Shown here: positions 1,679-17,608 of the stretch, piece after piece | How the letters are laid out: every line of letters starts with the position of its first letter | Position numbering within the stretch: the first letter of the stretch is position 1 | From: a virus | Direction: 5' to 3' (one strand) | DNA: 32,365 bases | Virus record (IMG/VR): IMGVR_UViG_3300037424_000553 | Coordinates: 64,947 to 97,311 of that record | Notes under the pieces: generated by a model | Told to the model about the DNA's origin: nothing | Seen by the model: only the letters and a program-made list of their open reading frames with translations | The model's database searches: none | Program-made: the position numbers and the translations under genes

Positions 1679-2616
1679 GCTTCGGTGAAACAATCGTCAA
1701 GAATCGTAGCATCTCGCATAACATGCTCACCACGCCGCTTGATCTTTGCGAAGTGCGTCAAGAGCGAGAGGATACCCTGCCAGTATGGATCCACCATCGG
1801 AAAGTCCGGTGCAGGCATGAGCTGATCGCCCCACAACCTGACGTTCCGCTCGTAGTGCATGATCGCTGACCATTCACCAGACTCAGGCTTGCTCATCCGT
1901 GGCATCGTGTACCCGTAGGACTCTTGATCCAGGATCTCGTTCGCGAGATTCATCTCGTTCTCATAAAAATGCATCGACCCAGTGTTCTGAATGTGCATCC
2001 CGACGTCGAGCCCAACATGAACTGCCACCCATTCGTGTAGCATCGTGAACAAGAAAATATCGTATGGGTAGACCATCACAATGTTCTGACTCCTGAACGT
2101 CGTGATGCAATGCAACCGCCTGTGACGAACGAAGAACTGCATCGAGATCGGACAGGGGATGTCCTTCGAATCGATGTGATCCACCGCCCCACTGAAGATA
2201 GTAACCACTGCCCGTCGTGATGCCGGATCAGCCTTGAGCATGGCAATCACGCTCTCAAGCTGCCTGATGATCCGTGGGCCATAGGCACCGTGAAGTGAAA
2301 CACCATCATCAGAAAACTTGGTGGTGATGGGGTTGTAGTAGAGCAGTGGCTCCACGCTGTCGGTCTCCATGAACTGATACATGAAGTTCCCGAAGGCGAA
2401 CCCAAGGTTGATCGGACGAGCCAGGCTGCTAATGATACGTGAGCGTGGATACTCGAGATCCATCCTCAATCCAAGCAGCTCGATGGTCTTATGCGATGCG
2501 CTCGGCGACGTCTTGTTCAGCAGCGGTTGCACCCACTCCCCATTCTCCATGACATCACGAACTGCGATTTTGTAGAGACCAGTGCTCGTCCCACTTTGTA
2601 GATGATCACTCGACAT
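1675..2616 (-). CDS. Thymidylate synthase-superfamily pyrimidine-modifying enzyme, probably dCMP-specific
   Basis: GAYGPRI, DPASRRAV, catalytic Cys in DIPC, RSQNIVMVYPYD, GSMHFYE; Asp at the position of E. coli ThyA Asn177. Confidence 0.88.
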   Translation of the reverse strand: MSSDHLQSGTSTGLYKIAVRDVMENGEWVQPLLNKTSPSASHKTIELLGLRMDLEYPRSRIISSLARPINLGFAFGNFMYQFMETDSVEPLLYYNPITTKFSDDGVSLHGAYGPRIIRQLESVIAMLKADPASRRAVVTIFSGAVDHIDSKDIPCPISMQFFVRHRRLHCITTFRSQNIVMVYPYDIFLFTMLHEWVAVHVGLDVGMHIQNTGSMHFYENEMNLANEILDQESYGYTMPRMSKPESGEWSAIMHYERNVRLWGDQLMPAPDFPMVDPYWQGILSLLTHFAKIKRRGEHVMRDATILDDCFTEA

Positions 2617-4486: not shown

Positions 4487-5536
4487 CTAAGACTCCAGAA
4501 CTTTGCGCCCATAGTCGACGTAGGCCTCCTTCAGATCATCTGGAACCTGCCGATGCGCCACGTAGCCTTCAACCAGTTCCTTGAACGAGCGTGATCCGGC
4601 AGCCTGGAGCCGAACGATCTGGGCCTGATCCACACGCTCTGGCCTGATGTCGAGGTAGCGTGGGTTACATTGCTCGAGCCGCTTGACGAACGCGCTATCC
4701 AGCGGACGCTTGGAGAAGAGTCGAATCAGATTCCCCTTGAACAGCCCATCGAAGTCCTTCCAGTTGATCGCATCAGGATCGCCAATCGGATCGACGTGCA
4801 TCACTACAAACTTCGGTGACTGTAACTCGAGTGTTGAGACACGCCCATCAGGATCAACGTAGAGTACACCCTTGTCCTGCTCCAGCTCACCAAAGTCTTT
4901 CGCGATGAAGCTGCCTGGATAGTCGACACCGTGAACATGCTGACGCTTGTGGAGATGCCCAGCGAATGCCCGTCCGTAGAGTCCGACACCAAGTGACTTC
5001 TCGGTGAATGTCGACTTGAGCATGTAGTCTGTCGGTCCAACTTCGGCACCATCGAGCTCACCATGAAACATCAATGTCTCGCGTTCCTTCTTCTGCTGTT
5101 TCAAGAATTTCAGCACCCGCTCCTGTTCATACAACCACGGAGCAAAGACGATGTCGTTGACCGTATCAACCTCAGGCTCGATGATGACGTTCGCAAACGC
5201 TTTGAATGACCAGATCGTCACGCTATCGTAGCGATCGTTTTCCCGGTCATGATTCCCGGCGATGAAGAACAAGTTGAGATCCCGGGCATGGTAGAAGTAG
5301 TTGAACACCTGATTCCGCACTTGCTCGTTTATATTCTTCTTCAGATGAAAGACATCACCGAGTACGTAGATCGCCCGGACATCCAGCTCACGGGCATAGC
5401 CAATCATTTCACGGAGTGCGTTACACCAGTCCAGGAGTCGCCCGTTGATCCCACCGGCAGGCTCCCCGCCTTCCTTCCAGTCATGCGCATGGAGATCCGC
5501 GCACACGATGAACCCGCGCTTCTTTAATCCCTTCAT
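4487..5536 (-). CDS. Mre11/SbcD (T4 gp47-like) metallophosphoesterase nuclease
   Basis: ADLH, GDVFH, GNHD, FHG, GHLH motifs. Confidence 0.92.
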   Translation of the reverse strand: MKGLKKRGFIVCADLHAHDWKEGGEPAGGINGRLLDWCNALREMIGYARELDVRAIYVLGDVFHLKKNINEQVRNQVFNYFYHARDLNLFFIAGNHDRENDRYDSVTIWSFKAFANVIIEPEVDTVNDIVFAPWLYEQERVLKFLKQQKKERETLMFHGELDGAEVGPTDYMLKSTFTEKSLGVGLYGRAFAGHLHKRQHVHGVDYPGSFIAKDFGELEQDKGVLYVDPDGRVSTLELQSPKFVVMHVDPIGDPDAINWKDFDGLFKGNLIRLFSKRPLDSAFVKRLEQCNPRYLDIRPERVDQAQIVRLQAAGSRSFKELVEGYVAHRQVPDDLKEAYVDYGRKVLES

Positions 5537-6606
5537 GTCGTGCAGAGTTGATGCATCCGGATCATGAATGCCTGCTCACTCTGATACGTTGGAACAACAC
5601 CACCAAAGTAGAAATCAAGAAAGTTCGCTGGCAGTTTGCCGCTATCAATGAGAACGCGAGGCTGATGATACTCGGCGGCCAATCGACCGATGTTCTCGAC
5701 ATCAGCCCACAGTTCAACAAGATTCCCCGTGTACTCTCCACGCATGTAAGCTTCGGTGACGCGTGCAATGTAAGCCGTTGGATGCGTCCGGCCAGTGATC
5801 TTGAATGATGAAATACCAAACGTCATGTGGTACCGACGAACCCACTGTGGGAGAATGAACCGTGCCCACAACCATTCAATCGGCTTGAGCACGCGCTCAC
5901 GGATACAGTTGCCCATTGGATAATGCCCATACATCTTGACCTCATCCTTGGAGAGATTGAGCGCGTGCAGATCATAACACTGGTTCCGGTCGGCACACTC
6001 ATAGACACAAAATTCGTTGACGATGGTCTCGAGTGTGATCCCAAGTGATCGCGAAAGCATCATGAACTGCGCCAGTTTCTCGCCATCGCGATTGGCAAAA
6101 ACATCCAAGCAGATCTTCTCGATGCTCGGACAGCGCCGCTTGAGCTGCTCAAGCTGCCGCGGATGACGAAGCTGAAGAATTGTCGAAAGTTCAATCGGCA
6201 GCGTCGGGCAGAGATCGTTAACAATCTGCGCGACAAGCGGATGTGCAACCGTGACTCGAATCACGCCGATTGACTTTAGAAATTCTAGGAACTTCACAAT
6301 CGTCGCTTCATGTGCCTTGAGTTCACGTGGATCCACCGCCGACGTATTGATCGTGTAGTTCATGCCAAATCCGTAGGACAACGCTTTGGCAACGAATGCC
6401 GCCAGAAACTCCTCATTATCATCCTTGAGCCGGAACGATGGCCGCGCTGTCCCGATCGGGTTGACACTTGGCAAACTCCCGTACAACTCAGTGATCTGCC
6501 AGGGTTGATCGAGGCTATAGCGGACATTGAGTTCATGGAGCTGATCCAGAAGCTCAAGGTCGAAGTTGCATCCTACTTTATAACTGATCGGATGAAGTGT
6601 CGACAT
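5533..6606 (-). CDS. Peptidase U32-family protein (Fe-S-dependent hydroxylase-type)
   Basis: NYTIN, IELST, Cys cluster IVNEFCVYECADRNQCY, later NC, and FKITGR matching the U32 (L/F)KIxGR motif. Confidence 0.82.
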   Translation of the reverse strand: MSTLHPISYKVGCNFDLELLDQLHELNVRYSLDQPWQITELYGSLPSVNPIGTARPSFRLKDDNEEFLAAFVAKALSYGFGMNYTINTSAVDPRELKAHEATIVKFLEFLKSIGVIRVTVAHPLVAQIVNDLCPTLPIELSTILQLRHPRQLEQLKRRCPSIEKICLDVFANRDGEKLAQFMMLSRSLGITLETIVNEFCVYECADRNQCYDLHALNLSKDEVKMYGHYPMGNCIRERVLKPIEWLWARFILPQWVRRYHMTFGISSFKITGRTHPTAYIARVTEAYMRGEYTGNLVELWADVENIGRLAAEYHQPRVLIDSGKLPANFLDFYFGGVVPTYQSEQAFMIRMHQLCTT

Positions 6607-10834: not shown

Positions 10835-11377
10835 CTATCTCCTCTCCCTGCGTTGTTGAACTGCATGTCGGTCCTGTTCCCGCTCGACTTCTGCTCTGGC
10901 GATCGTCCCAGCCTTACGGGCCAGGTCGACATCCATCTGCCGCCTGATGTTCGTGGCCAGTGCCACCAGCATATCCCGGCGGTGGGTCATCGCATCCCGC
11001 GCTGACTGGAGGCGATCAACCACTTTCTCCCACTTCAGCTTGTCATCTTCCAACTCCCGATACTTCCTGTTCTGGCTGATACGCGCCGCAACTTCCTTGT
11101 CCGTCGGTTTCTTCTCACCTTCCCCACCATGCTTGTACTCCTCGAAGAGATCTCCCTCGAGGCGATCCATCTTCAGCTTGATGAACGCGATCGCATCCTT
11201 GGCATCGGAGTGCATGGTCGCCCAGAGCGCGAACTTGGCTGGATGATCTGCCAACTCCGTATCGATGTTCCGATCATCGATCGTTACCTCATCGTAGAAG
11301 TTGACCTTCCACGTCTTGCCATTCGGTGTGATAACAGACCACTCGGCGAAGTGATCTCGTAGCTTCAGTGGCGGCAT
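10835..11377 (-). CDS. UvsY-like recombination mediator (coiled coil)
   Basis: IDDRNIDTELADHPAKFALWA start, helical body, KPTDKEVAARI, AMTHRRDMLVAL; position next to SSB and recombinase. Confidence 0.7.
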   Translation of the reverse strand: MPPLKLRDHFAEWSVITPNGKTWKVNFYDEVTIDDRNIDTELADHPAKFALWATMHSDAKDAIAFIKLKMDRLEGDLFEEYKHGGEGEKKPTDKEVAARISQNRKYRELEDDKLKWEKVVDRLQSARDAMTHRRDMLVALATNIRRQMDVDLARKAGTIARAEVEREQDRHAVQQRRERR

Positions 11378-11799
11378 TAGGCTCCACCTCCAATCTGACT
11401 CTCCCTGAGCCGCTGCTGTTCCTGGTTCATCCGCTCCTCAACGATGATACTCTTCCGAATGAACATCTCCTTGAACTTCGACCGGATCTCCGGCATGTAC
11501 ACGGGAATGTTCCAGATGTACTTCTGCGCATCGACGAATTCCTCGATCGCCGCCTCCATGTCGATGGGCCGATCCAGCTTGTGCACCTTGTAGTTGGTCG
11601 CCTTCTCGAGAAATTCGATGAGCTCACCGATCGCGCTGAGCACCATCTTGATCACCATGTCATTGCGTTCGACTGGTGTCAATTCCTCGGGCACTTCCTT
11701 CCCAGGGAACTTCAGCGCAATGACGCGCTCCTGAAACCTCTCTTGATAATCGATGTAATCCTCGAGTGTCTTGAGCGTATTACTCGTCGTTGGTGTCAT
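11377..11799 (-). CDS. All-alpha (dimeric dUTPase / T4 gp56 dCTPase / MazG-type) dNTP pyrophosphatase
   Basis: GELIEFLE...YKVHK...AIEEFVDAQKY metal-binding pattern; start uncertain (11799-11832). Confidence 0.75.
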   Translation of the reverse strand: MTPTTSNTLKTLEDYIDYQERFQERVIALKFPGKEVPEELTPVERNDMVIKMVLSAIGELIEFLEKATNYKVHKLDRPIDMEAAIEEFVDAQKYIWNIPVYMPEIRSKFKEMFIRKSIIVEERMNQEQQRLRESQIGGGA

Positions 11800-14700
11800 C
11801 ATCATCTCCATCCTTCTCGGATTTTTCATCACCCTTGTTGCGCTTGATCGTGTTCTCTCTGAGCTTCGCCCGCTGCTTGTCGGTCAAGCCCGGCACCAAC
11901 AGCTCCCATTCCGTCTCCGGATAGCACGCCACCAAGATCCGATACGACGGTGGGAAGATCAGCTTGCTCCAATAGTAGTCGTGATCGTAGATCCCCTTGA
12001 AGTCGTCGACGTGCACCGCCTGAAGCTTCGGCTTATACCCGGTCACGATATAGGGCACCTTCATGCCCACGTAGAATTCACCACCCGCATCTCTGAACTT
12101 ACGGGCGATCTCAACATGCACGGTCTTGGCCTTGTAACTTTCAATAGCCCGTGCGATACCCTTGGTGATTGTGATCTGCTCGATAGGCAGCTCGCCATTC
12201 AGGACCTTCTCACGCTCGGACATAAGAAAGTCGACGAGATGTTTCCGATTCACCTTCTGCCTGACCACCATCTCGATGATCGTCCGTTGCATGTCCCGGG
12301 CATACTCGATCCCATCCGAGCGCATGCACTCGAGCCCCTTCACCTCGGTGAAGCTCGCCTTCTTCCCCTTGTACATCGTCATCAGCCCTGCGTAGCGCTT
12401 CTTCCGGACAAAGAACATCCGGCTGAAGTAGTTCTCGTATTCCAGCTCGACGAGGAATCGTGACTCTGGAATGCCAAACTTCTCGTAGAGATGTTTCTTC
12501 AGATACTCGTTGCACCCAGCAACGAACGATGCACCCTGATCAGCCGGGAGTTTGATGTACATCGAGTCGGTGTCACCCGCCAGTGGTTCCAATCCTTGGA
12601 GCTTCGTGTAGTCGATCGCCTGCTTGAGGATGTACTGCCCACCAAGCGTGACCGCCTCGGCGACTTTGGGATTGAAGTAGCGACTCTCGACGTTGCCCAT
12701 ATCACCGTAGAAGGAAAGCCCCAGTCGCTTGAACGAATACGCCAGTCTGTAGTAGAGCAGAAACAGATCCGAGCCGACCTCTTGATCGGCCTGGAGCTTC
12801 TGGTAGACCTTCCGTTTCTCACCCGTGTCTTGGAAGATCTCCGGGATGAATCCCTTGCGTGACGTGAGGAACTTTGTCCCTGTCGGCGCGGTCACATACT
12901 CCGAGGGATCGAGCTTCTTCGCCTGCTCATCGGTGATATACGTCTCAGGACTGATGTTCCAGGCGAGCATCACTGATGGATACAGACTCTTGAAGTCGAC
13001 CGCCGCTACATCTTCGAAGATCCCAATCTTAGGATCCAGCACGTACGCCCCTTCGTACATACTTCCTTCAACACCGTACTCCCGCTTCTTGAAGTCGACC
13101 TTCCCACCTTCCTGCATGATGCGAACTTTCTTCGTCGGAAAGTGCATCCCCACCTGCTTGCCACGCTTGAGTAGCAGTGAATCGATTTTCGTGGTGATGT
13201 GATAGTCCCTGGCGAAGCAGTTCCCAATCCGCGAGAAGACCTGGTCAATCTTCGCATAGCCTGAGTGCTGCTCGAGCTGAACAAGCAGATTCGCATCGTA
13301 GCGGTTGTACTCCTCCAGAATGTCTGGCGCCTGCCGGTACAGCTCGAGGAATCGATGGACGTTGAGCCCACGATCCTTACACTTCTCTCGCCAGTCCAGC
13401 TTGCTTGTCTTCAACTGATGCTGCGCGATGGACTGCAATGAGAAGCTCACCATCGCCGATGCCCCACGCTGATGATACCGCTTCCAGGTCCTGAGCAGGT
13501 CAATGGTATGCGTATAGTCCCAGCGCGCTGTGACACCATGCATCCGCATCCGTTGCCGCAGGATCGGGAAGTCGAAGTTGTTCCCGTTCCAGGCATACAT
13601 GATGTCGATCTCTGGCATCTCGCGGGCGAACTTGATGAGCATCATCTTCTCTGAGCGATCGTTCTCCTTCTCGAGCAAGAGGAATCCCTTGCGAGGCTCA
13701 CGACTCTTGTCCTTCCAATGTGTCTCCCAGGCTATCGAGAGAATACGACGTTCGGCAAGATCCCGACGATCGATGAGTGGCTTGGTGTCATCGGTCTCGA
13801 TGTCAATGTACATCTCATCATACGCGCTCTGGATCTTGATGTCGTAGTCTGTGAGAAACCGGCGGGATGGTGTCAGATCCGCTTCGTAGTGCTTGACGCC
13901 CTCCTTCTCGATATCATCTAGCAACTCTCTGAGCAGACGATCCTTGGGATATTTCTTGAGGATGTTGTCGTCCCAGAGTGTGAGGTAACTCTCGAGGAGA
14001 TGCTCCTTCAAGGCCGCGGTACGAATAACCCACCGCTCGGAGTACACCTTGGTCCACTCTGGATTCACTTCATCCGGTTCGAGACGATGAACAGCGCCTT
14101 CCTTCATCCAGTATGCCCAGAACTTCTGCCCAAGCTTGAGTGCGTCTGTCGTCCTGAGATAGAAGTACCAGTTGAAATCGATGCCACCACGAACAACTTC
14201 TTCAGATTTCTGTCCATTGGCATTCGCGTAGACCAGTACAACATTCTTGCCGTCTGACCAAGCTGTGCTGTACTCTCGCTTGTCGTTCCATGGATTCCGG
14301 GAGAACACACCGGACTTGGCTTCCAGGGCGGCGATGACACTCTTGTCCTCTTGATGATGTTCAGTCCTGGTCTGATCGACGTACGTCCCCGTACTCGACT
14401 CCCCGACCAGAACAAGCGCCCGCTGGAGCATGTCCATGACCTTCCGCCGTGTGGTCATGTCCTGCGGGTTGTAGATGAAATGCGCCGGATGATAGAGCGG
14501 AATGATGATGTACCCGTTCTTCTCGATCTCACGCCCAAGCAACTCCTTCATCGGGCTGTTGAGATCCAAGAGGGCCTTCACCGCATAGGCACCCCAGGCA
14601 AGAATCACCCGCGGTTTCACCAGCGCGATTTCTTTCTCCAGCCATTTCTTAGTACAGGTGTCAATCCACTCCTGTTTAGGCTTGGCAATCTTGCCCTTGT

Positions 14701-14941
14701 CGTCGTAACCAGGGAAGCACTTCACAGTATTGGTCACGTACATCTGCGCCCGACTGAAGCCTGCCTCCTCCAACATCTGATCGAACAGAACACCAGACTT
14801 GCCGACCAGCGGGCGCCCCGCCTTGTCCTCACTCGGTCCCGGCGCCTCGGCAACAGACATGATCCGCGCCTTGGACGGTCCTTCGCCAAACACGACCTGC
14901 TTGGACGTCTTATGACAGTCACAGGCTGTGCACCGCATCAT
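11780..14941 (-). CDS. Family B DNA polymerase with N-terminal family-4 uracil-DNA glycosylase-like domain
   Basis: UDG: CTAC, VFGEG, AEAPG, GRPLVG, TNTVKC, YHPA. Exonuclease: DIET, WNGNNFD, YNRYD. Polymerase: DFKSLYPS, KRLGLSFYG, AGDTDS, KKRYAG, KGLE. Confidence 0.95.
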   Translation of the reverse strand: MMRCTACDCHKTSKQVVFGEGPSKARIMSVAEAPGPSEDKAGRPLVGKSGVLFDQMLEEAGFSRAQMYVTNTVKCFPGYDDKGKIAKPKQEWIDTCTKKWLEKEIALVKPRVILAWGAYAVKALLDLNSPMKELLGREIEKNGYIIIPLYHPAHFIYNPQDMTTRRKVMDMLQRALVLVGESSTGTYVDQTRTEHHQEDKSVIAALEAKSGVFSRNPWNDKREYSTAWSDGKNVVLVYANANGQKSEEVVRGGIDFNWYFYLRTTDALKLGQKFWAYWMKEGAVHRLEPDEVNPEWTKVYSERWVIRTAALKEHLLESYLTLWDDNILKKYPKDRLLRELLDDIEKEGVKHYEADLTPSRRFLTDYDIKIQSAYDEMYIDIETDDTKPLIDRRDLAERRILSIAWETHWKDKSREPRKGFLLLEKENDRSEKMMLIKFAREMPEIDIMYAWNGNNFDFPILRQRMRMHGVTARWDYTHTIDLLRTWKRYHQRGASAMVSFSLQSIAQHQLKTSKLDWREKCKDRGLNVHRFLELYRQAPDILEEYNRYDANLLVQLEQHSGYAKIDQVFSRIGNCFARDYHITTKIDSLLLKRGKQVGMHFPTKKVRIMQEGGKVDFKKREYGVEGSMYEGAYVLDPKIGIFEDVAAVDFKSLYPSVMLAWNISPETYITDEQAKKLDPSEYVTAPTGTKFLTSRKGFIPEIFQDTGEKRKVYQKLQADQEVGSDLFLLYYRLAYSFKRLGLSFYGDMGNVESRYFNPKVAEAVTLGGQYILKQAIDYTKLQGLEPLAGDTDSMYIKLPADQGASFVAGCNEYLKKHLYEKFGIPESRFLVELEYENYFSRMFFVRKKRYAGLMTMYKGKKASFTEVKGLECMRSDGIEYARDMQRTIIEMVVRQKVNRKHLVDFLMSEREKVLNGELPIEQITITKGIARAIESYKAKTVHVEIARKFRDAGGEFYVGMKVPYIVTGYKPKLQAVHVDDFKGIYDHDYYWSKLIFPPSYRILVACYPETEWELLVPGLTDKQRAKLRENTIKRNKGDEKSEKDGDDDDTNDE

Positions 14942-15549
14942 GGCACCTTGATTCCTTCTCCGGCATTCAGGCGTCTGAAGACGGCTCTAACAAACGCCCA
15001 CTGATTCTCGTACGACAGTCGCGAGACACCATCGGGATAGAGCAAGGACGCCGGATGATTGACGTACACGCTGATCCATCGATAGGACGCTCGCTCATCA
15101 ACGAGACGCGACTCGTACCACTGACACTTGAATGACTGCGTAAGCCCGATCCGCTTGCCTGCTACATTTCCGAGCGCGACAATGAGTTTCAGGTTGGGCA
15201 ATCTGACGAGCTCACTCTCTAACCAGTCAGCGCACTTGTTGACGTACTCGTCATGTGCCTTGCCCTCGCACTTCATCGCGTTGGTCACATAGAAATCCTC
15301 GAGCCTGAATCCAGCGTCAGTCATGACCGAGCGAAGGATCTCACTGCCCTTGGTCGTCTCTTGAGAATCCCAGAGATGTAACTCAAACGGAATGCGCTTG
15401 GGATTCTGTGGGACCGCATTCCCTGGATTCTGTGCGAGCAGCAGCATCGACGCATCAACATTTCCAATGCCAAGCCCCTTACTCGCCCGGAGCAGGCAAT
15501 GATCGCACTTGCGAATGACGTCGTTAAGTGTAAGTGACTCTAAGACCAT
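14938..15549 (-). CDS. Stand-alone uracil-DNA glycosylase-superfamily protein (Fe-S type)
   Basis: CDHC, LLAQNPG, YVTNAMKC, later C, IVALGNVA, NHPASLLY. Confidence 0.82.
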   Translation of the reverse strand: MVLESLTLNDVIRKCDHCLLRASKGLGIGNVDASMLLLAQNPGNAVPQNPKRIPFELHLWDSQETTKGSEILRSVMTDAGFRLEDFYVTNAMKCEGKAHDEYVNKCADWLESELVRLPNLKLIVALGNVAGKRIGLTQSFKCQWYESRLVDERASYRWISVYVNHPASLLYPDGVSRLSYENQWAFVRAVFRRLNAGEGIKVP

Positions 15550-16063
15550 GATGCCTCATGATCCGCTGGAAATCAATCACCAGCGCATCGATCGAACGTG
15601 TCCCATCGAGGATGTGCGTCTGATACAGATGCGTCGACAGTCCATGCGTCCATCGCTCGTATGCTTGATAAATCTGCGTATGCCGCTCAGTGATGACGCC
15701 CATATCTCCTCGGTCACTCATGCGCCGCTGCGCGACCTCTTGTGGTACACGGAGATAACACACGACAAGTCCGCCCGGCTCCCATGGCCCTCGATAGGCT
15801 GGGATCGGGCGGTTGTAGACTTGCGCGTAGATCGGACCTGTCACGACGGCAAAGCGATCGCAGATATACGTGCTTGCTCGATCGTACATCGATGAGAAGA
15901 GAGCAATGTCGCGTTGTTCCAGTTTGGCGATCTGCTCCCATAGATCTCGATCGAACGGTCCCCAGTTCACAAACTTCATGTTGTCGAACGTGAGGAGTTG
16001 TTTGAGCCGATGGTACAAGGTGGTCTTGCCGCATCCATCGGGTCCTTCGAGAGCGAAGATCAT
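15524..16063 (-). CDS. dNMP kinase (thymidylate-kinase fold)
   Basis: P-loop LEGPDGCGKTT, ICDR motif, lid QRRMSDRG. Confidence 0.85.
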   Translation of the reverse strand: MIFALEGPDGCGKTTLYHRLKQLLTFDNMKFVNWGPFDRDLWEQIAKLEQRDIALFSSMYDRASTYICDRFAVVTGPIYAQVYNRPIPAYRGPWEPGGLVVCYLRVPQEVAQRRMSDRGDMGVITERHTQIYQAYERWTHGLSTHLYQTHILDGTRSIDALVIDFQRIMRHHGLRVTYT

Positions 16064-16287: not shown

Positions 16288-16445
16288 ATACTCTCCGTGT
16301 ACAACTCCTTGCCATCAACTGTCCAGCCCTGCAGCTGTAAGTATCTCTCCCATCGCTCTCGCTGCTCCTGAGCATCGCCTTCCGAATACTGACCTTGAAC
16401 TTCCCGACGAATTGTGAGAATGATCGTTGTCTTGGGCATACTCAT
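16284..16445 (-). CDS. Hypothetical protein (53 aa)
   Basis: Manual translation MSMPKTTIILTIRREVQGQYSEGDAQEQRERWERYLQLQGWTVDGKELYTESM; ATGA and GTGA overlaps at its ends. Confidence 0.6.
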   Translation of the reverse strand: MSMPKTTIILTIRREVQGQYSEGDAQEQRERWERYLQLQGWTVDGKELYTESM

Positions 16446-17608
16446 CCCTGTATCAGCTTCAGCAGTGTCGGTTTAATGTTGCGAGCCCAGACTGCCCCGT
16501 ACTCTCCGGCGTTCATGTTCCGTGTCAGATGAATGAGCTGGTCTTTCGTTGCCCGCTCATAGAGTCCGCTCTCGAAGATCCCTTGAATGAATCCGGCCAT
16601 GTACTCGGCGCCCATGTTGGAGAGCAGGCCTGGCCAGTCCTTGTCAACAAGATCTTTGTACCCATCACAATTCAGCAGGATCGGGAAGGCACCACAGGCG
16701 ATCGCTTCACGGATACTCTCGCCACCGAATCCATTATCGCAGAGACCGATGACAGCCTTGCTGCGCCTGAGAAGCCGGGTGTACGCACCCAGATTCTTGT
16801 TGGTACCCTCCTGGACATAGACGTTCTCGATGCCCTCGAGCAACTTGTTCTCGGTGAGATAGCGCGTCTGATCAGGGAAGTAGACCTTCCCTTGCCATCC
16901 AATCTCACGCAGCACCTTGAGTGCTGCAATGAACTCCACGTGATGTGAGTAGTTGGTGCTACTCCCACGCAGGACGAACAGCAGATCGATGTCACGCTCC
17001 GGCGGTGCCCAGTTCTGGGACTGAATGGGATCGTGCAATTGCTGAATATTCCATGCGAATGGCCAGAGCTGAACACCATCGATTGCCTTCTCGAAGTCTC
17101 TTTGCTTCGCAAGATGATCGCGAATCCGTTGCCGCATACTCGGACTCAGGCATGTGATGACATCCGCCTTCTCATAGTTCATGTCGAACAACGGACTCAT
17201 CCATGGCCATGCTGTCTCCGGTGAGAGATTGTGATGCTGAATCACCTTCATCTTCGGATAGGCACCTTTGATCGCCCACCCGATGAGCTCATGCGAGGTA
17301 AAGAGGATATCGACATCCTTGAACAGCGTCGGCCAGCGATGCGGATACCACTCGAGCCGCTGCGCCATATTCTCTGCCGGGATCGCTACTTCATGGATGT
17401 CAAGCATATCACCCGTCCCATCCCACGCTGGGAGCGTCTGGCAATCCTTGAGTTGCGGCACCAGCAGGCGAATCTTCCAGCCCAGCTCCTCATGGATCTT
17501 GTGCGCCATGAACATGATGTGCTTGGTGGCAACACAGGAATGCAGCAGGAATTTCCCAGTCTGCTTGTCCTGCTGCGAGTAGAAGGGCAGGAGTGCGATT
17601 CGTGTCAT
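16442..17608 (-). CDS. GT-B fold glycosyltransferase, probably DNA-modifying
   Basis: ADVITCLSPSMR, DLLFVLR, YTRLLRRSKAVI, FGGESIREAIACGAFPIL (GT-B donor-binding motif); embedded in the replication module. Confidence 0.8.
   Translation of the reverse strand: MTRIALLPFYSQQDKQTGKFLLHSCVATKHIMFMAHKIHEELGWKIRLLVPQLKDCQTLPAWDGTGDMLDIHEVAIPAENMAQRLEWYPHRWPTLFKDVDILFTSHELIGWAIKGAYPKMKVIQHHNLSPETAWPWMSPLFDMNYEKADVITCLSPSMRQRIRDHLAKQRDFEKAIDGVQLWPFAWNIQQLHDPIQSQNWAPPERDIDLLFVLRGSSTNYSHHVEFIAALKVLREIGWQGKVYFPDQTRYLTENKLLEGIENVYVQEGTNKNLGAYTRLLRRSKAVIGLCDNGFGGESIREAIACGAFPILLNCDGYKDLVDKDWPGLLSNMGAEYMAGFIQGIFESGLYERATKDQLIHLTRNMNAGEYGAVWARNIKPTLLKLIQG

Follow-up and report, generated by a model that had tools for sequence, protein, structure and literature searches.

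The window analysed here is a stretch of 32,365 nucleotides, positions 64,947 to 97,311 of the IMG/VR virus record IMGVR_UViG_3300037424_000553, and carries on its minus strand a gene (1675-2616) for a 313 amino acid homologue of thymidylate synthase (TS). By analogy with characterised phage enzymes, this gene very probably encodes a TS-fold hydroxylase acting on C5 of deoxycytidine monophosphate (dCMP), i.e., a 5-hydroxy-dCMP (5hodCMP) synthase. The core of this explanation, namely a dCMP substrate, no use of folate and a heteroatom placed at C5, is already published (PMC13326640). The combination of D169N and N177D (E. coli ThyA numbering) marks a switch from folate one-carbon transfer to flavin-dependent hydroxylation within the TS fold, and the window extends this kind of enzyme to a deep, MilA-like long-form clade found in an unrelated, uncultured phage lineage.

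Active site and fold of the TS homologue

Residue equivalences were taken from a MAFFT alignment with E. coli K-12 ThyA and T4 gp42. The block RSQNIVMVYPYD (residues 175-186, 2059-2094, minus strand) aligns without gaps to ThyA R166-N177, and a HMMER alignment to MilA gives the same register. Within this block, ThyA R166, S167 and P175 are kept as R175, S176 and P184, while C168 is replaced by Q177, D169 by N178, L172 by M181, G173 by V182 and N177 by D186. The motif DIPC (residues 152-155, 2152-2163, minus strand) provides Cys155, equivalent to the catalytic C146 of ThyA, and places D152 at the position of L143, a site at which an acidic residue (L143D/E) is noted in hydroxymethylases as well as in 5hodCMP synthases (PMC13326640). 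The next residue is P156 in place of H147, and Y94 and H207 are retained as Y112 and H216. The gapless block, the catalytic Cys kept in DIPC and the presence of Asp, Asn and Val at positions 177, 169 and 173 had been proposed in a reading made without database searches (hereafter the sequence-only reading), and each of these points holds against the real ThyA. The span which it gave, 2059-2160, starts correctly with the block but ends too early, as DIPC runs to 2163 and its Asp codon is clipped by three bases.

One further change goes beyond the sequence-only reading. Glu58 of ThyA (Glu68 of MilA), the general acid/base of TS chemistry, is replaced by Asn77 (codon at 2386-2388, minus strand), as placed by the HMMER alignment to MilA, the MAFFT alignment and covariation. 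Hence none of the three residues that characterise folate-dependent TSs and hydroxymethylases, Asp169, Glu58 and Gly173, is present, their positions being occupied by Asn178, Asn77 and Val182, and the residues expected of a 5hodCMP synthase are found as Cys155, Asp186 and Asn178. W80 of ThyA is also replaced, by Thr; its loss was considered as a mark of lost folate use and rejected, relatives that keep Asp169 being without W80 as well.

The protein has the TS fold, as seen both from its PF00303 match (E 1.4e-20) and from the matches of its AlphaFold2 model (predicted local distance difference test, pLDDT, 97) to the phage structures 9iqc and 9iqu. In the structure comparison (VIA), the model matched 9iqc with Z 27.4 and a root mean square deviation of 2.3 over 222 aligned residues and 9iqu with Z 26.6, these two matches spanning 211-222 of 217-234 residues. 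The match to MilA (5jnh) reached Z 33.1 with 285 residues aligned, and ThyA structures were matched at about Z 25.

Relation to published 5hodCMP synthases

Viral TS homologues carrying both N177D and D169N were shown by Lee et al. (NAR 2026) to be flavin- and O2-dependent dCMP 5-hydroxylases (PMC13326640). In the phage RB69 and the Acinetobacter phage DLP3, deoxycytidine is replaced by arabinosylated 5-hydroxycytosine (5hoC), the 5-hydroxyl being put on dCMP by the TS homologue (RB69 gp48, DLP3 gp80) and later glycosylated on the DNA (PMC13326640). Both enzymes carry N177D, L143E and D169N, the last of which was proposed to be diagnostic, and either of them, expressed alone in E. coli, gave 5-hydroxydeoxycytidine (5hodC) (PMC13326640). 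The 5hodCMP synthases co-purify with flavin mononucleotide (FMN), and the oxygen of the hydroxyl comes from 18O2 (PMC13326640). Nine further D169N homologues, taken from IMG/VR metaviromes, distant Straboviridae and the Rhizobium phage RL38JI, were assayed in vivo and 9/9 made 5hodC; the D169N homologues tested, all of them positive, include those of RB69, DLP3, RL38JI and Thanatos together with IMG/VR metavirome sequences (PMC13326640). Enzymes of this kind start the glycosyl-5-hydroxycytosine DNA modifications, which shield phages from restriction and CRISPR.

The same paper refers to He et al. (Nat Chem Biol 2026) for the crystal structure of the HY126 phage enzyme with bound flavin (PMC13326640). 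The Protein Data Bank (PDB) titles of 9iqu ('phage HY126 dCMP hydroxylase-AfhB with substrate dCMP') and 9iqc ('Monooxygenase dependent on riboflavin with dCMP and FAD') identify these entries as structures matching the HY126 enzyme, and their aligned block, RSQNCAVVMQLD, shows the same RSQN...D pattern. A literature search under the PDB codes 9IQU, 9IQC and 9IR2 returned no paper.

These data bear on the functional part of the sequence-only reading, which had proposed a dCMP-type specificity with retained Cys chemistry, no use of methylene-tetrahydrofolate (CH2-THF) and a C5 substituent other than a one-carbon unit. The first is supported by the published N177D + D169N homologues, and the third by their product, 5-hydroxy-dCMP (PMC13326640). 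The second is supported by the flavin/O2 chemistry of the same homologues (PMC13326640) and by the title of PDB entry 1bjg, 'D221(169)N mutant does not promote opening of the cofactor imidazolidine ring', a direct structural precedent for Asn at ThyA-169 disabling CH2-THF activation.

Conservation and phylogeny

Searches of 5.8 billion protein clusters yielded 20 close relatives with 42-55% identity, and the pattern RSQN-x-x-M-[VL]-x-[PG]-Y-D is present in 20/20. In a 19-sequence alignment of the clade, R175, S176, Q177, N178, Y185, D186 and the catalytic C155 are invariant. HMMER, run exhaustively against 1.84 billion representatives, added further homologues, and covariation was read from the active-site columns of 261 aligned homologues. 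Asp is found at position 169 in 162 of the 261, in which Glu58 and Gly173 are also kept with few exceptions. Gln-Asn occupies positions 168-169 in 27 homologues and Gln-Ser in 67; in both groups Glu58 is lost (replaced by Asn, Gln, Leu or others), Leu172 becomes Met or Phe and Gly173 becomes Val or Leu, the position of ThyA-58 being Asn, Gln or Leu in the window clade. Asp at the N177 position is common to nearly all of the 261 rows.

The active-site changes are thus fixed in a clade of 27 cluster representatives, and because E58, D169, L172 and G173 covary and stay fixed across the 261 homologues they are the signature of a large subfamily rather than a lesion. This bears on the idea that the protein is a non-catalytic remnant of TS that only binds dCMP or plays a regulatory role. 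Several canonical catalytic residues of TS are indeed lost, as such a remnant would have it. However, the nucleophilic Cys, the phosphate-binding R134, R135 and R175, His216 and Tyr218 show little or no variation within the family and the substitutions are fixed, not decaying, which makes a remnant highly improbable.

A quick maximum likelihood (ML) tree of 111 rows included ThyA, T4 gp42 and RB69 gp48 along with the homologues of Lazarus (DLP3-like), Bp7, a Pootjesviridae Rhizobium phage and the Tenacibaculum phage PTm1. All non-Asp169 rows, including the relatives of verified enzymes, fall on one side of a single branch (Shimodaira-Hasegawa-like approximate likelihood ratio test, SH-aLRT, 89). 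The clade of the verified type (99) is sister to the remainder of the non-Asp169 rows (87), and the window clade, 26 rows with a support of 99, lies within this remainder, interleaved with Ser169 rows. Within the non-Asp169 superclade, the window protein occupies a long and deep branch of MilA-like type. The tree is consistent with, but does not prove, a single loss of Asp169.

The Ser169 sister group (RSQS..MV..D) comprises 67 representatives (P0022, P0025, P0038 and P0126-P0257), which have lost Glu58, Gly173 and often Tyr94, and no report of a product was found for this group. The joint loss of E58, D169, L172 and G173 across the family, together with the Ser169 group, offers a map for tracing how a folate pocket turned into a flavin pocket.

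Both the signature and the tree weigh on the main rival, a folate-dependent dCMP hydroxymethylase or methylase similar to T4 gp42 or MilA, in which Asn178 would replace Asp in pterin binding. The best overall match of the window protein in sequence and structure is MilA (E 7e-26, Z 33), the residue at L143 is acidic as in hydroxymethylases, and a kinase and a glycosyltransferase are encoded nearby, as in T4. Nevertheless, Asp169, Glu58 and Gly173 have been lost jointly when the neighbouring clades that keep Asp169 retain all three, a D169N TS fails to open the cofactor imidazolidine ring according to the 1bjg title, all tested D169N homologues made 5hodC and not 5-hydroxymethyldeoxycytidine (PMC13326640), and the clade falls with the non-Asp169 enzymes and not with T4 gp42. 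A folate-dependent enzyme is therefore considered improbable.

Proposed pathway

The mechanism proposed for the putative 5hodCMP synthase of the window, including its use of a flavin, its dependence on O2 and its product, follows by analogy from RB69 gp48, DLP3 gp80 and HY126 AfhB. Asp186 would select cytosine and Cys155 would add to C6 of dCMP, while the former folate pocket, devoid of Asp169, Glu58 and Gly173, would hold the flavin; the activated C5 would then be hydroxylated with oxygen derived from O2. The resulting 5hodCMP could be phosphorylated by a thymidylate kinase (Tmk)-like enzyme, and the phage polymerase would incorporate the hydroxylated nucleotide in place of deoxycytidine, glycosylation taking place afterwards on the DNA. 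A candidate dCTPase and a deoxycytidine triphosphate deaminase (DCD)-like gene, present in the genome but outside the window, may deplete the dCTP pool.

Several genes of the window are candidates for these steps. The Tmk-like kinase of 179 amino acids (15524-16063, minus strand; phrog_761 E 3.7e-17) is a candidate 5hodCMP kinase; it also matches TIGR00041 with E 9e-8, below the cut-off, and is matched by the Lazarus_074 kinase in tblastn with E 3e-5. 'Nucleotide kinases' adjoin the hydroxylase in RB69, DLP3 and RL38JI (PMC13326640), and these are Tmk-like, as is that of the window. The candidate dCTPase/dUTPase, which would feed dCMP to the hydroxylase, is an all-alpha nucleoside triphosphate (NTP) pyrophosphatase-like protein (11377-11832, minus strand). 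It gave no direct Pfam match and was assigned by its similarity (39% identity, E 6e-22) to a PF08761 protein (dUTPase_2; dimeric dUTPase/all-alpha NTP-PPase) that occupies the same place after the polymerase gene PolB in the related locus L003. Finally, a GT-B (GT4-like) glycosyltransferase (16442-17608, minus strand), with a weak PF13439 match (E 1.7e-4) below the cut-off, is a candidate DNA 5hoC glycosyltransferase. It resembles none of the transferases of RB69, Lazarus or RHph, and homologues of RB69 gp46:47, RB69 gp51-55 and HY126 AfhE were not found in the genome of the window phage. An arabinose pathway was consequently rejected for this phage, its genome being devoid of arabinose-gene homologues. 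Because the arabinose and base-proximal transferase genes of the known systems are absent, the sugar and the transferase should differ from those systems if 5hoC is glycosylated, and other glycans on 5hoC are to be expected since the lineage has different sugar-transfer genes.

A flavin-using TS-fold enzyme could also act on another substrate or make another product, such as one acting on CMP, one yielding a further oxidised product or one placing a different heteroatom at C5. The depth of the clade, its differences from AfhB and gp48 in length (313 versus 238 amino acids), in the E58 position and in the replacement of H147 by Pro, and the large Ser169 sister group with its 67 representatives, which shows that the pocket varies, speak for this possibility. 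On the other hand, Asp186 fits cytosine, and dCMP rather than CMP is expected because Ser176 and Arg134 are residues of the deoxy type; moreover, the replication-module context, the kinase and the candidate dCTPase fit a pathway of the deoxynucleotide pool. Such an enzyme therefore appears unlikely.

The assignment as a 5hodCMP synthase is carried by the signature C146/N177D/D169N/L143D, confirmed against the real ThyA and fixed in the clade, by the position within the non-Asp169 side of the tree, by the gene context and by the presence of a single TS-family gene in the whole 97-kb record, in which neither a second TS nor ThyX was found. Several points weigh against it. The closest solved structure overall is that of the folate-dependent MilA (Z 33), the identity to RB69 gp48 is 25%, and the branch that joins the window clade to the verified clade in the quick tree has moderate support. 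The enzymes assayed by Lee et al. may also not include one of the long-form clade. Furthermore, ThyA E58 is Asn in the window protein, whereas the RB69-type enzymes may keep a nearby Glu (alignments differ by 1-2 residues); because the position of ThyA-58 differs, the active sites of the two are not identical.

The neighbouring U32 protein

Near the TS homologue, on the same strand, the window encodes a U32-family Fe-S-type protein (5533-6606, minus strand; PF01136, 40.2 bits for a cut-off of 22.4), a candidate O2-independent hydroxylase. The characterised members of the U32 family (UbiU/UbiV, TrhP and RlhA) are O2-independent hydroxylases, and two of them act at the C5 of a pyrimidine in RNA. 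The U32 protein of the window has in common with them PF01136 and the TIM-barrel U32 fold, and its Cys pattern aligns with three UbiU Fe-S ligands, but it belongs, unlike them, to a phage-specific subfamily. Its model matched the U32 structure 5d88 with Z 19.3 over 228 aligned residues and a viral U32 cluster of the atlas with a TM score of 0.89. In hhalign, the matches to UbiU (E 5e-6) and TrhP (7e-5) are very distant; the former places C204, C210 and C234 on the Fe-S ligands C169, C176 and C193 of UbiU, the fourth ligand being unaligned. Conservation is complete at C200, C210 and C234 and almost complete at C166. The protein is homologous to RB69 gp50 (37% identity, E 7e-63), which lies two genes from gp48 (RB69, L009:12493-13662). 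RB69 gp50 was listed only as a 'sugar or heterocycle reductase', and the U32 hydroxylations of rRNA and tRNA were cited as unrelated pathways (PMC13326640). No literature report was found joining TS and U32 in phage hypermodification, or U32 with arabinosyl cytosine in phages.

According to the sequence-only reading, the U32 protein would be a partner of the TS homologue and supply its C5 substituent. This is not borne out, as gp48 or gp80 alone gave 5hodC (PMC13326640) and the U32 gene is missing from three of the seven syntenic relatives with the order exo-[U32]-SbcD-SbcC-TS-RuvC: it is present in the window, L001, L077 and L079 and absent from L003, L005 and L078. A protein of 251 amino acids found in its place in L003 was considered and proved unrelated to U32. 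A locus search with the clade alignment returned only two IMG/VR loci, one of which ends before the U32 position. U32 was also not found in the whole records of the Acinetobacter phage Lazarus, the Rhizobium phage RHph_I46, the Tenacibaculum phage PTm1 and the coliphage Bp7, all of which carry an RB69 gp48-like TS homologue, with Asn at ThyA-169 in the three that were aligned.

The two genes are nonetheless associated across phages. Among 55 IMG/VR loci, a TS homologue lies within 10 kb of the U32 homologue in 26, and in 25 of these 26 ThyA-169 is not Asp (RSQN in 19, RSQS in 4 and RSNN in 2), Asp being present at 177 in all. The pairing of U32 with a non-Asp169 TS homologue recurs in four TS subclades. 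The RSQS cases are the Ser169 homologues of L019, L036, L037 and L055, and the RSNN cases, in which Asn169 is preceded by Asn and not Gln (L056:2857-3525 and L063:8151-9044), are placed by the tree with the RB69/Rhizobium-phage clade. Outside the Straboviridae, U32 is found in the window phage.

U32 is also found without a TS homologue, which was absent from 14 of the 15 U32 records searched whole. Four of the U32 records are 97-100% complete and have no TS-family gene, as confirmed with PF00303 and a positive control. In the three of these four that were examined, U32 takes the place of the TS-fold hydroxylase. In L061 (8501-11086), a Tmk-like kinase is followed by a homologue (E 6e-22 to Lazarus_075) of the base-proximal 5hoC glycosyltransferase and then by U32 (50% identity to gp50). 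In L018 (5348-11089) and L040 (2594-8446), a transferase-homologue fusion comes first, followed by an arabinose-5-P isomerase homologue, an AfhE-like enzyme, a ~210 amino acid protein and U32.

U32 is thus linked to 5hoC chemistry, but more probably by a route of its own than through partnership with the TS homologue. The protein may tentatively be viewed as a stand-alone, oxygen-independent hydroxylase acting on C5 of dCMP or of cytosine in DNA. By analogy with the characterised family members, a second, anoxic route to 5hoC could then exist beside the O2-dependent TS-fold flavoenzyme and be the sole route in some phages, a proposal that is likewise tentative. These routes draw support from the co-occurrence in four TS subclades, from U32 in a phage without arabinose genes and from the four U32 records without TS, while a role in UDP-arabinose synthesis fails to explain the U32 protein of the window because its phage has no arabinose genes. 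The relation of U32 to the TS-fold flavoenzyme would be similar to that of TrhP to TrhO and of UbiU/V to UbiI/H/F. If this is true, the neighbour of the TS homologue is possibly an anaerobic hydroxylase of DNA precursors.

Among cultured phages, the two genes show a host pattern. The 222 cultured-phage records with a U32 homologue have enterobacterial hosts throughout, among the matches listed, and include HY126, RB69 and genera given as 5hoC producers by Lee et al. (PMC13326640). Acinetobacter phages account for 57 records with the gp48-type enzyme and Rhizobium phages for 22, and the ten genera listed for U32 include neither of these hosts. In phages of Acinetobacter, Rhizobium and Tenacibaculum, the TS-fold hydroxylase occurs without U32, whereas both are present in most phages of Klebsiella, Proteus, Yersinia and Escherichia, the coliphage Bp7 being an exception. 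This pattern is confounded by virus phylogeny.

Genome and locus organisation

The window is the terminal 32 kb of a 97,311-bp record with a completeness estimate of 92%, and its replication/recombination module is encoded on the minus strand. The genes follow in the order RuvC-like, TS homologue, SbcC-like, SbcD-like and U32, and then 5'-3' exonuclease, deoxyribosyltransferase-like, RecA/UvsX, gp32 and the pyrophosphatase-like gene. These are followed by a fusion of uracil-DNA glycosylase (UDG) and PolB, a second UDG, the Tmk-like kinase and the GT4-like transferase, and finally by primase, DnaB and UvsW.

The TGA stop of the TS gene overlaps an in-frame ATG of the RuvC-like open reading frame (ATGA, 1675-1678 of the window), located five codons past the TTG start listed for that frame at 1693, and the start of the TS gene overlaps the end of the SbcC-like gene by 11 bases. 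These overlaps suggest translational coupling inside a replication operon. In one relative, an inserted HNH endonuclease gene (L079:7469-8011) separates the SbcC-like gene from the TS homologue. In the region 11780-15549, PolB has a family-4 UDG domain at its N terminus, and a second gene of the UDG superfamily precedes it; the UDG-PolB fusion is kept in all examined relatives (L001, L003, L005 and L078). It is conceivable that the UDGs handle deaminated or unmodified bases in DNA containing 5hoC.

Comparison with known systems

E. coli ThyA and the window protein have in common the fold, Cys146, Arg126/127/166, Ser167, Tyr94, His207 and Tyr209, and differ by N177D, D169N, E58N, G173V, L143D and W80T. 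T4 gp42 is closer in that it has Asp at N177, an acidic residue at the L143 position and a role in the replacement of deoxycytidine before glycosylation. However, both Glu60 and the Asp at 169, which are lost in the window protein, are present in gp42, and its reaction is the transfer of a one-carbon unit from folate.

MilA, the CMP 5-hydroxymethylase of mildiomycin biosynthesis (5jnh, 5b6d), is the best overall match (28% identity, E 7e-26), sharing the long architecture and identical numbering of Cys155, Asp186, His216 and Tyr218. In contrast to the window protein, MilA retains Glu68 and Asp at ThyA-169 (RANDAF) and uses CH2-THF. The residues by which MilA prefers ribose are Ala176 and Lys133 (PMC5175136); the corresponding residues of the window protein are Ser176 and Arg134.

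The phage 5hodCMP synthases HY126 AfhB (9iqu, 9iqc and 9ir2), RB69 gp48, DLP3 gp80 and RL38JI gp216 differ from the window protein in several respects. The latter has a MilA-like C-terminal helical extension, which brings it to 313 amino acids compared with about 238 in AfhB and gp48, and carries Asn at ThyA E58 and Pro at H147, unlike these two enzymes. Its phage belongs to another lineage than the known 5hoC phages, with a 97-kb genome and a UDG-PolB fusion, and has neither arabinose genes nor a homologue of the base-proximal arabinosyl/galactosyl transferase. Nevertheless, the TS fold, the catalytic Cys, N177D, D169N within RSQN, the acidic L143 position, a residue other than Gly at 173 and, with moderate support, a place in the same superclade of the quick tree are common to the window protein and these synthases, and their genomes have in common a Tmk-like kinase and a nearby U32 protein of the RB69 gp50 type.

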